Part shown: positions 16,010 through 40,200 of the stretch, in pieces
Layout of the letters: each line of letters opens with the position of its first letter
How positions within the stretch are numbered: position 1 is the stretch's first letter
Assembly (NCBI GenBank): GCA_010093815.1
Contig: ML996566.1
DNA: 64,000 bases
Source of the DNA: Pseudovirgaria hyperparasitica
Lineage: Eukaryota
Direction: 5' to 3' (one strand)
Position numbers and translations under genes: made by a program
The notes under the pieces: generated by a model
The model's database searches: none
What the model was told of the DNA's origin: nothing
What the model saw: the letters and a program-made list of their open reading frames with translations, nothing else

Positions 16010-16953
16010 GTTGTGTTGTCGTGAAGCGTGTAGTGATCTTGTTGTCTCGTAGATTGCTCTTGCAGAATTCTGGACAGGTTGCTTGTGAGTTGGGAGTAGA
16101 TTGTGAAGGCGGAGACGAGGTTTAAGGGTCATGGACGAGCACTTGAAGCCTGATTGTTCACTCCCTTATGCCGCTGGTACGCGTGCCAGGAGGGGCAAAT
16201 GATGACGTATGAACCGCATAGGTATAGTTGAGCACGATGGTACGAGAGATGCGTTTCACAACATCCATCAATCATCACAGGTATAGATTCAGCCTTGCAA
16301 GTTTGATGAATTGGCCACCTTCATTTGAGGAGACTGAGGACTCGTGATAGTATGCTTGCTTTGATGTCCCTTGCTCAATGTTGAGCAATGTTATACCTAC
16401 CACCAGCAACCATTAGCTCAAAAATAAACTGCTCCGGACATGTGGCATTCTATATCTCCATCATTACAAACCCGGAGATCAGGCAATAAGAGGATACAGT
16501 CGAGTTTCACCGAGACTTACGTAGACAGGGGGTCCCGAGGGTACTCAACGTGGCAGTCACCGGATATACAAGTTATACACAAGTCCGAAGTGGGCTTCTT
16601 TGGATAGCTAGGTCATCGAGCGCCAAGACAGATTTCAGTGAGAATGGATGCGTATCCAGACTAACCCCAGTAACTAACTATGGATTAGAGCTAAATCCGT
16701 GACGTGCACACTTTTACTTATCTCCGAATAAGTTGGAAGTCTTCAGGTTGTTCGTGCAGTGAAATCTAACTTCCAGCGTTAGACTCCCACTAGTACATCC
16801 ATATAAGAAGAACGGCCTGCCCTGTCAAGAACAGCGTCTCTCACTATTGCCCTACCTCGATCATAAACTACAAAGACAGCGTCAGCCCTCACCGTCCAAA
16901 ATCTATTATCAACGATTTTACTCAAGACTTTACATTGAATTATCTTCAAGAAA

Positions 16954-17949
16954 ATGTCGCAACAACTCGTGGGAAAACCAGTCAGCAAAACTGGGTTTGG
17001 TCTTATGGGTTTGACTTGGCGCCCGACCCCGATTCCATTCGAAGAATCCATCGAGATTATGCATCAGGCATTTCATAAGCACGGCGCAAACTTCTTCGTT
17101 GGAGGGGTCTTCTATGGCCCACCAGAGCGTAACAGTCTACATCTACTCAAGGCATATTTCGATAAATATCCTGAAGACGCTGAAAAGGTCATCGTGTCAA
17201 TCAAGGGCGGCAATGATCCGAAAACCCTGGCACCCCAAGCGAATGAGAAGGACTTGACTGCCGATATTGAGTTCTGCCTGAAAACTCTAGACAACAAGAA
17301 AATCGACATCTTCGAGGCGTCTCGTGTCGATCCCAAGGTCCCGATCGAGGATTCCCTAAGCTACATCAAGAGATATGTTGATGCTGGCAAGATCGGAGGC
17401 GTGGCCATCTCCGAAGTAAATGCCACTTCAGTCCGGAAAGCAGCCAAGTTCACAAACATCGTCGCGTGCGAGATTGAGTTTTCGCTTTTTCATACTGCCC
17501 CTCTCACGAATGGGGTCTTCGCTGCCTGCAAGGAGCATAACATTCCCGTTATTGCGTACTCACCACTGGGCAGAGGCTTTTTGACTGGCCAAATCAGGAC
17601 ACCAGAGGACATTCCGGAGGGAGACTTTCGCAGGACTATCCCACGCTTCCAGGGCGAGACATTCTACGAAAACATCAAGCTAGTGAGAGCCATCGAACAG
17701 CTGGCGGAAAAGAAAGGATGCACATCTGGGCAAGTTGCACTTTCTTGGATTGAGCAGCAGAGTGGGAGGAATGGTAATCCTGTTATTATTCCCATTCCAG
17801 GGACTACCTCACAAAAGCGATTGGTTGAGAATATGGTTCGCGTTCACCTCACAGATGAGGACTTTAAGGAAATTGATGGAATTATTGCCAGCATTCCAAT
17901 CTCCGGCACACGATACGGAGGACACGCTTTGTCGGTTATTGATGGCTGA
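16954..17949 (+). CDS. Aldo-keto reductase (pyridoxal reductase-like), intronless
   Basis: GFGLMG, FYG, SIKGG, IDIFE.SRVD, GKIGGVAISE, AYSPLGRGFLTG, IPIPGT. Confidence 0.9.
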   Translation: MSQQLVGKPVSKTGFGLMGLTWRPTPIPFEESIEIMHQAFHKHGANFFVGGVFYGPPERNSLHLLKAYFDKYPEDAEKVIVSIKGGNDPKTLAPQANEKDLTADIEFCLKTLDNKKIDIFEASRVDPKVPIEDSLSYIKRYVDAGKIGGVAISEVNATSVRKAAKFTNIVACEIEFSLFHTAPLTNGVFAACKEHNIPVIAYSPLGRGFLTGQIRTPEDIPEGDFRRTIPRFQGETFYENIKLVRAIEQLAEKKGCTSGQVALSWIEQQSGRNGNPVIIPIPGTTSQKRLVENMVRVHLTDEDFKEIDGIIASIPISGTRYGGHALSVIDG

Positions 17950-18180
17950 AGGAACGTAGAATCAAACGAAAGCCCCAAATAGAGACTTACGAATGAAGCT
18001 GTAATACATACAGAATAGTATGCCGACATTTCAGATCTAATAAAAATCCTCCTAGTTGCCTGAAAAACGCGCGTTCTGACGCTTATCCATAAATTTTAAG
18101 AATTACGTCTGTATGTCAACACATTAGCTTGGGACGAGGAATCATGAACAAGTATGGCGTTGAATAGGAGCAATAATGTG

Positions 18181-18267
18181 TCAGATCAAGTGTAGTGTGT
18201 TTTTCATTCGCTCACTCGGTTATCGCGTAACGAGAACCGTAACGAATTGCAGATTGATGTTCATCAC
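18181..18267 (-). ncRNA. Intronic box C/D snoRNA/scaRNA, predicted guide for 2'-O-methylation of U2 snRNA
   Basis: Box C GTGATGA (18267-18261) and box D CTGA (18184-18181). The 12 nt just before box D (ACTACACTTGAT) are complementary to the invariant U2 sequence AUCAAGUGUAGU. It lies inside a GTAAGT..GCTAAT..CAG intron (18306-18109). Confidence 0.8.
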
Positions 18268-18583
18268 GATGCGTAGGAATCAAACGATAAGAGATACTCC
18301 ACTTACTGTTCGGCTAGTAGAAGATGACAGTTATCTGAATTCGACATCCTGCTGATGGGCCTATAGCTCACATTTTTTGTTATTGAGTGGTGACAACGGT
18401 GACATGAATATCGAGAGAGAAGTGGTGGCGGCACGCCTCTCATGGATTTAATGAGCTACCCACAATGAGACTAGCTTGCCGCGTCGCGATCTAATCTAAA
18501 GTCGGACACTCCTCAGAGTCGTTGGTCGACAACCAACCAACACGACAGCACTTCATACACATAATCCATACCGTACACCCATC

Positions 18584-19850
18584 ATGTCTTCTGCTGGCTC
18601 ACCTCTCTCTCCAACTTCACAACTATCATCCCTTGACGAGCCGCTTTCCTCCTACGACTCTGAAGACTTCGACGACGTAAAGCCCAAGAGGAGTGCTCGA
18701 CGCTCTCCCGATGCAGACAAAGGCAGCGGACGGCCGACTAAACGTCAACGACGTAGGGAAGCTCGCCCTCACTTAGACCCTCCCCCTCCGGCCGAAGTAG
18801 ATCTATACGAGAACGAAGTGGTATCAGATGATACCGATGGCAGCGTCCCTGCTTCGCCGAGCCACCCTGGTGATGAAGACGTACACGAGCGGCAAGTAAC
18901 TTGGTGCAAATGGGACGGCTGCCAGGCCGGCGACATCGGGAATATGGATAAGTTGGTGGAACATCTTCATGAGGACCACATTGGAGTGCGACAGAAAAAG
19001 TACTCGTGCGAATGGGTAGATTGCTCCAGAAAAGGTATACCACATGCCAGTGGGTACGCATTGCGCGCTCATATGCGGAGCCATACCCGAGAGAAACCCT
19101 TCTTCTGCACATTACCTGGTAAGACGATACGTGAACACAGTCATGTGCCCCACTGATATATGTCCAGAGTGCGATCGTTCGTTCACCCGCTCCGATGCGT
19201 TAGCAAAGCATATGCGCACCGTCCATGAGACTGAAGCCCTCCGCCCATCAGATCCCGTCCCCAAACACCACTCGTCCAACGTTGGCAAGACCTACCAGCG
19301 CCTCAAACTCATCTTCAACAAAAACAACGGTGATAAAAATGACTCCCCACCACCTTCATCCCCAGGCATGTCCAATCCAATGCACCCTGATCCGAATCAC
19401 GCCCTCAACAATGTTCAATACTACGCGGATCCAAGCACACCCAGCGGCGTTGGCCGTATCTTCCCCAATGACATCCACTTCACTCCAGAAGAGCTCGCAA
19501 TGCCAGCCGATCAGCTTTTCCATCTTCTTCGTCGTCAACAGCATTGGGCGCTACAAGAGTCCGAGGAGCTGAAGATTGAGTTTGACGACCTCGAGAAGAA
19601 GCGATTTGAGGAGTGGATGCGCAAGGAGCTTGTGTTGGAAAATATGCAGGAAGCTGACTTGATGCGTATGATGCGCAATAGGCAAGACATGGGAGTCGCT
19701 GCAGATGGCCTAGAGGGCTTGTGGAGGGTCCTTGAGGAGGATGTAGCACCCTCAAAGAAACTGGAGATTAAGGGGAAGCAGCCTTGGTGGCGCACTGTGG
19801 TTACCAGCACACCAACCGACGGTGAAGTACCAGATCTCAGAGGAGCATAG
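18584..19850 (+). CDS. C2H2 zinc-finger protein (INO80 complex subunit Iec1-like); 2 exons
   Basis: Three C2H2 fingers: CKWDGC..HLHEDH, CEWVDC..SGYALRAHMRSHTREKPFFC and LPECDRSFTRSDALAKHMRTVHE. Intron 19119-19167. C-terminal coiled coil. Confidence 0.85.
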
Positions 19851-20118
19851 GAGTCGGAAGATTGGTGGCACAGGGGTGTATGGGGCAATGGAACTTTGTA
19901 ATGCATTTACCGGCGCGGAGTTTCATGGATTACGTTTAGGGAAACACACGATCGTGTACTACGGACGCGGCTTGTTATGTTAAAGGTCTGGCTTTCTCCC
20001 AAGTCCTTAAGGCACGTAGCACTAATGATCCAATGTTACCCATCCCATGGTACTTCTATAGCAGAATAATGCTACACATGGCACGTACGCTAAAGGCTGT
20101 TGCTAACAATAGAGGCAA

Positions 20119-37216: not shown

Positions 37217-40200
37217 CGTAAGTTGAGTTAGGTGGAGAGGTGGAGTCAATGAAAGAAGTCAAAGTAGGAGATAGGCACAGAATGATCGGACGGCCGTTGA
37301 AGGCCAGCAAATACGACCGATGAGACAACGACCGACTGAGCCGTGGATGGTTATACGGCAGAAGGCATTCGAGAAGAAGCTGTAGATGCAGTGTAAGGGC
37401 TAGCAGCCAGTGTTATAACGTGGAAGACAATCTTCAGATATCGACTGACGATCATACCCACAATCCAGATGGGTCGGGGTGGGGATTGGCCTCAATTGCT
37501 AATTGATCCTTTAGCGGGCTTCGGCGAACCAGATGACTCTCTCGTGCCCTAGCGTTGGACACACGAGGCCGTCAGCCAATCAGCGTGGAACATACAGTGA
37601 ATAAACACGTAAGTGAAGCGCCCTGGCCTAAAGCGGGAGCGTGTAATACGGCGCTGCATGGCATTCCTTTCTGCGGCTGTCATTACAGTTAAAGCCTGTG
37701 CGGTATGCTGCAGTGTTGACAGAGGTCTAAAAATGCCGTGCAATCAAGTTGCGCCTGGTGTCTTTACGTGGAACGCACGTTAACATGCATGCCGTCGATC
37801 ATCCTCCAGGCGGTCGGTCGGTAAGTATTACAGTGATAGTGTCCCGTCCAAAATATACGAGTGGCGAGGCCAATCATTAGCTTGTGGTGTCAAGCTGAGC
37901 GATTACGCCTAGAGCATACATAGTATATTGCGGCGCGCAATTGATTCGCAATTACAGTCTGCCGACATTATGCAAGCCATTCAACGCAAAGAGGAGGCCA
38001 AGTAACTGAGTTTCCTGCAGGGTCGACCGGGACAACAGAAGAGTAGCCGTCACGGATACCAATGCGATCTGAAGTCCGTGGAATGACTGCTTGCGGAGCA
38101 TTTTGCGAAATAGTACATCAGTACATAGTACGATGTACCATGGGTGTGACTACCGCCGCCATCCGTAAGGCACAGGCTACTGCAAGCCGTCGCAAATTGG
38201 ATCGAGGTTTATTGTCTGGCCTGATGTGGGCAGATGAGAATCATGCTGGAATGTAATTACACGACAGGCTCGTGTCCAGGGAGTTGGGAAGTCTAGCCAT
38301 ACCGTCGGTTCGGGTTCGTGTTTCCCCCCAAACGCCAACGGGTCGTTTCGATCTACATATGTGAATTTCTGGAATGGAGGCGTGTTGTGCGGAACGTGAA
38401 TTGTGCTGGTTGTGTGACGCAGGTTGAAATAAGAATTGTTTGATTCGACGGCGGCGATGGCTTGCGGGCTGGGATGTTCGGCGCGCAACGGCACCACGCC
38501 CGTGCGGCAAAGTAAGGGGCTTCTTGAGGCTCGAGCTTGGCCAAATGCGGCGTAGTGTGTTTACACCTTGGTCGCCGTCTCAGAACCCTGGATAGGAAGA
38601 ATCATATTACTCTATCAAAAGAACAGAGCGCAGACAGCACTGGATGTTAGTGTCAAACAAGCAACCCTATTCCATCGATGAACAGGCTAGATTCATACGA
38701 TTGACCACAGTACATACAATGCACAGCATATACATGGATGGTAACGTCACTTTCGTAGCCGTAGTTCTCTACCCCAGGGCTTCGCACGAAAGCATCAGGC
38801 AACGTACTGTAGATCACCCAGTCTGACTCGCGGTCAGCACCAAACTTAGCCATCAAAGCTGTCGTATTGTGCTGTTTAGGCACAATCGTCCCAGCGCTTA
38901 ACCTCTGTCTGAAACAATAGCATGTAGCATACTTTCCAGGCAAACTGCATATGTCTCGGTATGGCACTGATGTGAGATGACGCTTTAGTATGAGGGATGG
39001 ACTGGACGTTGCTACAGCTCTGAGCGTAGTGTCTTTGGTGAAGCTGGCTGAGAAGGTGAGCCAGAATGAATTGGGCATAATATATGCAAGGCCAGAGGGC
39101 TTGCGTGGGATGGCACTTTGGTTAAGGAACCGACTAAATGCGAACTCGCCTCAATGACCGAGAGATCTCACTTGTCTCCTTTTTCGTTAATATTTGTTGC
39201 ATCTTCTCCTCCCTCCTGCATGGACCGTGTCTGACTGCAACACCCTGTCTGTAGACGGAGAATCACTGTATACAGTCGCGTAACTGCTCTGGACTACTTG
39301 TATCTCCAAGCGTGGAGGCGTGTGTAGGTTTCCTAGAGTCTGAAATCGAAAGCCCGGGAGATGTCTTTTGCCGCAAAACGCTGAGATTCTAGCACTCCAG
39401 GTGCAAGCAATTACATTCGCAACAAGATCGTACGACGTGTTTGTCTGTGGCATATCCACATATATTCATTGGTGATTGCCTCAAACTTGTAACCAGCACC
39501 CCAGTATGCGAGGACCTTTTGTTAATACGCCTCCGTCAGATGCTGATATGACCTCTAGTTCTGACACGTGGGTAGATAGCTGCTTATCTGCTCATTACTG
39601 CGTTTATTTCAAGTGTAGCTAGTACGAGACAGCATACCAATAGAGGCCTGAGACAAGTTGCAGATGTCTTGGAAACACGATCGGTCGAGATCATTCATGT
39701 GATGCGTCTGCATACTTCGCCTACCGGGCTTTCGCACTCCTCCAAATCTAATGCTCTCATACCTGCATTCTTCCCTCTGTACCAAATATATACGCTAGCC
39801 TATATAGAGCCTGTTGCCGCATCTGATAGATCTTATCGGCTATCTGAGATGAATCTGGCTTCGGACCGTAAGTCCAAGGTATAACTTATGATCGTATGGC
39901 ACAATTATGAGAAAGAGTATGGATGCTAACTGTACGGTGAGAGCAGTTAATGAATACGTATGCGGTTGTATCGACGCACGATGTCGTGCGTCCGACTACA
40001 TAAACAGTCGAAACGATGTCTGATTTGGCTGAACATGACAGACTTTGCGACAACAACGTCAGCGTACATTCATTATTCACACAGAGTTCGTTGAGAAGAA
40101 GACGAGGTTGACAGACTGCTATTTGACCCGTCGTCATATCTGACAAATCTTGTGGAAGCGCTGGTCGCTCGTAATGCAGGAGTTAGAACGACACGTAGAC

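Follow-up and report, generated by a model that had tools for sequence, protein, structure and literature searches.

An intron-encoded box C/D RNA of Pseudovirgaria hyperparasitica, very probably an orthologue of Aspergillus fumigatus Afu-191, with an intact U2 guide and a shortened 5.8S guide

In human U2 snRNA, methylation of Am30 is guided by scaRNA9 (mgU2-19/30), and METTL4 subsequently turns Am30 into m6Am30, as outlined in the relevant part of a review (PMC7960923). Two fungal RNAs have been described that act, or are predicted to act, on the equivalent adenosine. The entry for Afu-191 of Aspergillus fumigatus in Jöchl 2008 (PMC2377427) reports 11 cDNA clones, a 92-nt cDNA and a 90-nt northern band, places the RNA between Afu1g10270 and Afu1g10280 (accession AM921920), and gives Gm75 in 5.8S and Am32 in U2 snRNA as its putative targets. 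The Neurospora crassa RNA CD29, as presented in Liu 2009 (PMC2780460), is 101 nt long and intronic; its D guide is directed to U2-Am31 with 16/0 pairing and its D' guide to 5.8S-Am42, SCARNA9 is named as its human homologue, and its cognates in other filamentous fungi are described as retaining the U2 guide only. Low-dNTP primer extension gave stops at U2 G32 and 5.8S A43; the account of CD29 in that paper includes a mapped U2 methylation in N. crassa and no report of a guide deletion. Finally, the part of the survey by Canzler 2018 (PMC5824354) that deals with these RNAs lists AM921920 (CD_35), found in Pezizomycotina, as one of a small number of box C/D families in which two target regions are conserved, and places Nc_CD_29 in Glomerellales and Neurospora.

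We investigated a candidate for such an RNA in a 64,000-nt stretch of the P. hyperparasitica genome, referred to here as the window. A sequence-only reading of this DNA had proposed a box C/D guide RNA on the minus strand. Assignment to the box C/D class was judged by a RUGAUGA motif near the 5' end and a CUGA motif near the 3' end, lying 60-130 nt apart, an antisense element of at least 10 nt that ends at box D or D', a short terminal stem, and internal D' and C' boxes. Box C (GTGATGA, 18261..18267, minus strand) and box D (CTGA, 18181..18184, minus strand) were found exactly as they had been read, and the element measures 87 nt from one to the other (18181..18267, minus strand). Followed along the minus strand from 18267 to 18181, the order is GTGATGA, 65 nt, ACTACACTTGAT and CTGA. 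The 12-nt D guide ACTACACTTGAT (18185..18196, minus strand) abuts box D and is the exact complement of AUCAAGUGUAGU, which forms positions 26-37 of the Rfam U2 consensus and is also present in a real U2 gene on a metagenome contig (L012, 136.6 bits); the perfect complementarity to U2 26-37 that had been claimed was therefore recovered against both. Position 30 of the U2 consensus, an A, is the pairing partner of the fifth guide nucleotide before box D, in agreement with the A30 equivalent that had been derived as the target by the fifth-nucleotide rule. We take this adenosine to sit just 5' of the branch-point recognition sequence.

Box C, box D and the abutting antisense element of the class are thus all present in the window copy. 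A terminal stem beside boxes C and D is absent: the window copy has a single in-register pair at this place. All 28 of the metagenome relatives described below likewise have 0-2 such pairs, which argues that the missing stem is a trait of the family and no defect of the window copy. When compared with shuffled sequences, the window copy was no more stably folded (z -0.21), as is usual for box C/D RNAs. Short motifs, an absent terminal stem and a fold no better than that of shuffles are also what would be seen if box-like motifs and a U2-complementary 12-mer had come to lie side by side by chance in intergenic DNA. The frequencies of the motifs speak against such a coincidence. The window contains six RTGATGA sites, all of them on the minus strand, and seven pairs of box C and CTGA spaced by 51-125 nt. 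The U2-antisense 12-mer, counted by script, occurs once on both strands together, as against 0.0076 occurrences expected from the base composition, and the expected number of 12-mers placed at one of the seven C..D pairs is 4e-7. Combined with the E value of 7.8e-8 obtained with a family model on which controls reached at most 30.1 bits, and with a neighbouring gene that is kept in 24 of 28 relatives, these statistics refute chance juxtaposition, to which we assign next to no credence.

No part of the 64-kb window matched Rfam at the gathering score. A permissive Rfam scan of 16500-20000 aligned 18179-18272 on the minus strand to positions 1-93 of the 93 positions of RF01499 (Afu_191); the score of 20.2 bits (E 4.4 in this 3.5-kb scan) does not reach the gathering score of 60. 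Three blocks are conserved in the alignment, namely box C, UCUGCAAU and CUACACUUGAUCUGA. This full-length, subthreshold alignment is the outcome of the Infernal/Rfam comparison that the sequence-only reading had proposed. A question left open there, whether the RNA belongs to a described fungal snoRNA family, is answered by the evidence taken together: it belongs to Afu-191 / CD_35. The guide had also been called hidden. The term is accurate only in the narrow sense that a gathering-score scan finds nothing in the window, and the novelty it implies does not hold, since the family has been published.

Afu-191 and the window copy were identical in box C and in the guide-plus-box-D block CUACACUUGAUCUGA. 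The D' antisense core UCUGCAAU lies at the same place in both, and the order of D' box, hairpin and C' box is common to the two RNAs. They align end to end at about 90 nt and share the same predicted U2 target, as given for Afu-191 in the entry of Jöchl 2008 (PMC2377427). The D guide CUACACUUGAU followed by CUGA, by which Afu_191 / CD_35 is aimed at the U2 A30 equivalent, is present in the window. The sequence-only reading had interpreted the locus as a guide for methylation of this adenosine and as a counterpart of SCARNA9; the same interpretation is in print for Afu-191 (PMC2377427) and, in the treatment of its human homologue, for CD29 (PMC2780460).

To collect relatives, metagenomes were scanned with a pattern made up of box C (with TGATGA as the part included in the pattern), 50-80 nt, and a 15-mer spanning the guide and box D. 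The pattern occurred at 71 loci; the 55 distinct ones divided into 28 of the window type, nine resembling N. crassa CD29 and 18 others. Box C and the guide were prerequisites of the scan, and their constancy among the relatives is therefore no independent evidence. All 28 window-type relatives, however, also share features that lie outside the pattern: box C is followed by GART-TCTGCAAT, and beyond it come a D' box of four bases, a hairpin and an ATGNNGA that is C'-like. Rfam was run on 20 of these 28, and 19 matched Afu_191 at E<=0.01 with 37.7-89.4 bits, among them three above the RF01499 gathering score (L023 with 89.4, L050 with 80.7 and L016 with 64.6 bits); the remaining one of the 20, L066, gave no Afu_191 match at E<=0.01. 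Given 19 matches in 20, three of which exceed the gathering score, the 28 relatives form, as judged from their sequences, a graded series that runs out from Afu-191 proper. The RF01499 cut-off is narrow, since only three of 20 evident relatives pass it. Routine annotation will consequently miss this snoRNA in many Pezizomycotina, as it does the window copy with its 20 bits, and a broader RF01499 seed alignment would cure the missed annotation outside Aspergillus-like sequences.

A covariance model (R1) was then built from the 28 metagenomic relatives, with the window copy left out. R1 matched the window at 18178-18269 on the minus strand over its full length with 41.8 bits (E 7.8e-8). As controls we used 25 pattern-holders of the other types, which agree with the window copy in box C, guide and box D, the two U2 genes among the pattern matches being excluded; these scored 12.7-30.1 bits. 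The window copy thus exceeds the best control by at least 11.7 bits, a gain that comes from its interior. The next-best R1 match in the window, at 39601-39680 on the minus strand, reached 12.2 bits (E 0.7). It contains ATCTGCAA and CTACACTTGA in the right order, has neither box C nor box D, and was rejected as a second copy of the family and attributed to chance.

The genomic position of the element was examined as a further character. The snoRNA sits in a 634-bp gap between two plus-strand genes, an aldo-keto reductase gene (16954..17949, plus strand; Pfam PF00248, E 9.4e-61), which is its convergent neighbour and the synteny anchor of the family, and a C2H2 zinc-finger protein gene that begins at 18584 (plus strand) on the other flank. 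In a tblastn search with the window reductase, 27 of the 71 loci gave matches, all of them of the window type and representing 24 of the 28 distinct relatives. In every match the reductase is encoded on the opposite strand, with its C-terminus downstream of box D, the convergent arrangement seen in the window. Syntenic conservation of boxes and guide had been suggested as a check on the locus by the sequence-only reading; the neighbour is kept in 24 of 28 relatives, and the constancy of box C and guide is given by construction. The reductase was not found by tblastn in L021, L034, L064 and L066, the last of which has a flank of only 54 nt. With the N-terminus of the zinc-finger protein there was no tblastn match in any locus, the 400-nt flanks holding too little of that gene. 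The Afu-191-like loci above the Rfam cut-off (L023, L050 and L016) have the same reductase neighbour as the window; support for synteny with Afu-191 comes from metagenome loci that score with Afu_191, not from the A. fumigatus locus itself, where Afu1g10270 and Afu1g10280 are characterised, in what two papers say of them, by membership of a cluster and not by product.

Splicing around the element was visible in assembled contigs from two public runs (X1 and X2), which come from one sample of one study and whose records do not state that they are RNA; they cover part of the window, and only the covered parts serve as evidence here. In one contig of X1 and one of X2, 18108 is followed immediately by 18307, so that exactly the 198 nt bearing the snoRNA (18109..18306, minus strand) are left out. 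The ends of the skipped segment read CT..AC on the plus strand and hence GT..AG on the minus strand, with GTAAGT at 18306-18301, a branch-like GCTAAT at 18128-18123 and the terminal AG at 18110-18109. Because the joint has exact GT..AG splice borders, we infer that the contigs are of RNA origin and represent a minus-strand transcript. The first exon of this host transcript, as far as the contigs reach, occupies 18307..18428 (minus strand), 18428 being the end of the X1 contig. The start of the second exon lies at 17950..18108 (minus strand), and from 18108 the contigs extend without interruption past 17600, into the convergent gene. By eye, the exons hold only a very short open reading frame, and the host transcript is therefore probably non-coding. 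The location of the snoRNA in a spliced intron goes beyond what had been read from the sequence, as does the remnant of a second guide described below. It also marks a difference from Afu-191, which is listed as intergenic in Jöchl 2008 (PMC2377427), whereas the window RNA occupies an intron spliced out of an unannotated host transcript.

From the end of box D it is 56 nt to the branch adenosine and 72 nt to the 3' splice site in the window. In 25 of the 28 relatives a branch-like motif follows box D at 53-73 nt and a YAG at 61-89 nt (the exceptions are L010, L027 and L066), ranges that the window geometry matches; by a rough estimate, a branch-like motif of this kind falls in a random span of 20 nt about 8% of the time. 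The place of Afu_191 / CD_35, intronic, some 55-60 nt ahead of the branch point and convergent with the reductase, is thus also the place of the window copy. A second GTAAGT is present downstream of the snoRNA intron, near 17990 (17985-17995, minus strand). A second intron starting there was considered and rejected, as the contigs pass through it unspliced. A single contig per run spans both the plus-strand reductase gene and the spliced minus-strand joint (17600-18428). This suggests a tail-to-tail overlap between the host transcript and the reductase mRNA, unless the assembler merged the two.

With these data in hand we consider it very probable that the locus encodes a genuine intronic box C/D snoRNA, orthologous to A. 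fumigatus Afu-191 (RF01499; AM921920 / CD_35), that guides 2'-O-methylation of the U2 A30 equivalent and whose 5.8S guide is shortened. Under this explanation a short, probably non-coding host transcript would be produced from the minus strand and spliced, and the 87-nt RNA would be trimmed from the excised intron as a snoRNP together with the box C/D proteins. The 12-nt element upstream of box D would then pair with positions 26-37 of U2 snRNA, and fibrillarin/Nop1 would be expected to 2'-O-methylate the A that is paired to the fifth guide nucleotide, an adenosine that would correspond to A30 in human, A31 in N. crassa and 'A32' in A. fumigatus. By analogy with the described systems, we presume that the snoRNA is expressed and that U2 is methylated at this site in P. 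hyperparasitica.

The low RF01499 score of the window copy, 20.2 bits as compared with 37.7-89.4 bits for the 19 matching relatives, could alternatively mark a family member in decay, one without function that no longer forms a stable snoRNP; the D' and C' motifs of the window copy are indeed degenerate and its second guide is shortened. Decay of the whole element, however, is difficult to reconcile with boxes C and D that match the consensus exactly, with an intact 12-nt U2 guide, and with a copy that has kept the syntenic position of the family, in a spliced intron whose branch motif follows 56 nt later. Nor does the window offer a replacement copy, as R1 has just one further match there, of 12.2 bits (E 0.7), which lacks the boxes. 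We therefore hold decay to be quite improbable and retain a functional U2 guide as the preferred explanation.

The interior of the element departs from that of Afu-191. After box C, the family alignment identifies a 9-nt remnant of the D' guide, TCTGCAATT, at 18245..18253 (minus strand). In all 28 relatives the tetranucleotide GART precedes TCTGCAAT; it is missing from the window copy. The uninterrupted D' antisense is consequently only 9 nt long, as against at least 12 nt in the relatives, and the 5.8S antisense also differs from that of Afu-191 in having no GART extension. The target of this guide, Gm75 of 5.8S, is taken from Table 1 of Jöchl 2008 (PMC2377427), where it is a prediction. Directly after the second antisense element follows the D' slot, which by family alignment is a degenerate CGTTA at 18240..18244 (minus strand). 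It lacks the GA of the box consensus, in contrast to the CUGA of the Afu_191 consensus, and among the 28 relatives only L070, with CGTA, is similar. The D' boxes of the relatives comprise seven variants: CGGA in 11, CTGA in six, CCAA in six, CCGA in two, and CAGA, CTGC and CGTA in one each. The sequence-only reading had placed a D'-like box elsewhere, at CCGA (18219-18216); this motif falls in the 3' arm of a conserved hairpin, and the D' position of the family is CGTTA at 18244-18240.

The internal hairpin between D' and C' occupies 18217..18239 (minus strand) in the window copy and was recognised from covariation among the relatives and from the minimum free energy fold. The relatives have the consensus CGGTTTC ... 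GAAGCCG with six consensus pairs, five of which show compensatory double changes. The window copy retains the four outer pairs with a different sequence (CGGTT ... AACCG), distinct also from that of Afu-191, and the hairpin is present in its minimum free energy fold, where it is longer. It is followed by a C'-like region at 18204..18216 (minus strand). The family model aligns C' to 18216-18208, and the CGAATGA at 18210-18204 that had been read as C'-like overlaps this stretch; the earlier placement is therefore not upheld as it stood, and the exact register of C' in the window copy is ambiguous.

With a 5.8S antisense of only 9 nt and a degenerate D' box, the window RNA is probably, on the strength of these sequence changes, mainly or only a U2 guide in this lineage, and its 5.8S function has probably been weakened or lost. 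Whether the double-guide family has actually shed its 5.8S function here, and has thereby given rise to a dedicated guide for the U2 Am30 equivalent, is a proposal that we put forward tentatively, as a reading of the D' half that may well turn out either way. The same RNA could instead still operate as a full double guide, its 9-nt D' element, perhaps extended by mismatched or bulged pairing, together with CGTTA continuing to direct methylation of the 5.8S Gm75 equivalent; this alternative differs from the preferred explanation in the D' half only. It would fit the retention of TCTGCAATT at the family position directly before the D' slot, the combination of a similar CGTA box with a full-length antisense element in L070, the variability of D' boxes throughout the family, with its seven variants among 28 relatives, and the place that the Canzler 2018 survey (PMC5824354) gives CD_35 among the families with two conserved target regions. 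However, GART before TCTGCAAT is universal among the 28 relatives and absent from the window copy, where at least 12 nt of antisense have become 9, the GA of the box consensus is missing from the D' slot, and a comparable restriction to the U2 guide is described by Liu 2009 (PMC2780460) for the related CD29 cognates of other filamentous fungi. On balance we think it rather unlikely that the window RNA is still a full double guide, and return to an Afu-191 orthologue with a shortened 5.8S guide as the preferred explanation.

The window RNA is not new but an ordinary copy of an already described fungal family. Papers of 2008-2009 had already reported the family, its U2 and 5.8S targets, its relation to SCARNA9 and a methylated U2 site in a filamentous fungus, and a fungal survey followed in 2018, which leaves little biological weight for the present locus; as an orthologue of a published family, the RNA is accordingly of low interest in itself. 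The window copy may be a natural U2-only variant, and copies whose 5.8S guide has eroded in this way could be used to examine the U2 methyl on its own. If the 5.8S function has indeed been lost, that loss would be a natural separation of the two functions of the family, and removing the RNA would then test the role of this methylation of U2, adjacent to the branch-point recognition sequence, and leave the ribosome untouched.

The human and Neurospora RNAs provided two further comparisons. Like the fungal family, SCARNA9 is concerned with U2 A30, where it guides a fibrillarin-dependent 2'-O-methylation whose product is then the substrate of METTL4; this pathway, which the sequence-only reading had also cited, agrees with the corresponding part of the review (PMC7960923). 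Unlike the fungal RNA, which has no such element and whose other guide is a 5.8S antisense, SCARNA9 also guides U2 Gm19 (PMC7960923). In the Rfam scan of 16500-20000, SCARNA9 gave no match at E<=10. The resemblance to N. crassa CD29 consists in intronic location and in a D guide aimed at the same U2 adenosine (U2-Am31), and the differences in the length of 101 nt, the 16 nt of U2 complementarity and a D' guide directed to 5.8S-Am42 and not Gm75, as these are given for CD29 in Liu 2009 (PMC2780460). Membership of the window copy in CD29 / CD_29 was rejected, as its D' element is of the TCTGCAAT type and not of the TTTCGCTG type found in CD29-like loci.

The nine distinct CD29-like metagenome loci (L001, L018, L019, L020, L022, L030, L033, L054 and L067) carry the same U2 guide with another D' antisense, TTTCGCTGT in several of them, and a hairpin of the GACAGACC type. 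None had a match to any Rfam family at E<=0.01 or a reductase neighbour, and on R1 they scored 14.2-29.1 bits, as against 41.8 for the window. The CD29-like type seems to be absent from Rfam.

The 18 other loci were heterogeneous. L004, L005, L008, L009, L011, L017, L042 and others look like box C/D RNAs and have the same U2 guide with unrelated interiors; they presumably come from other eukaryotes. Among them, L008 weakly matches the plant snoRNA snoZ119, with 36.1 bits against a cut-off of 70. L058, L047 and L049 resemble chance hits in other sequence. Two loci, L012 and L014, proved to be U2 genes on the opposite strand, the pattern having matched their antisense. L012 (1-703) holds part of U4 followed by U5, U2 and 5S rRNA, head to tail, and L014 (112-759) a U3-like RNA, U2 and U5, likewise head to tail. 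Small-RNA genes are thus packed within about 700 bases on each of these eukaryotic metagenome contigs, in a dense snRNA/5S cluster.
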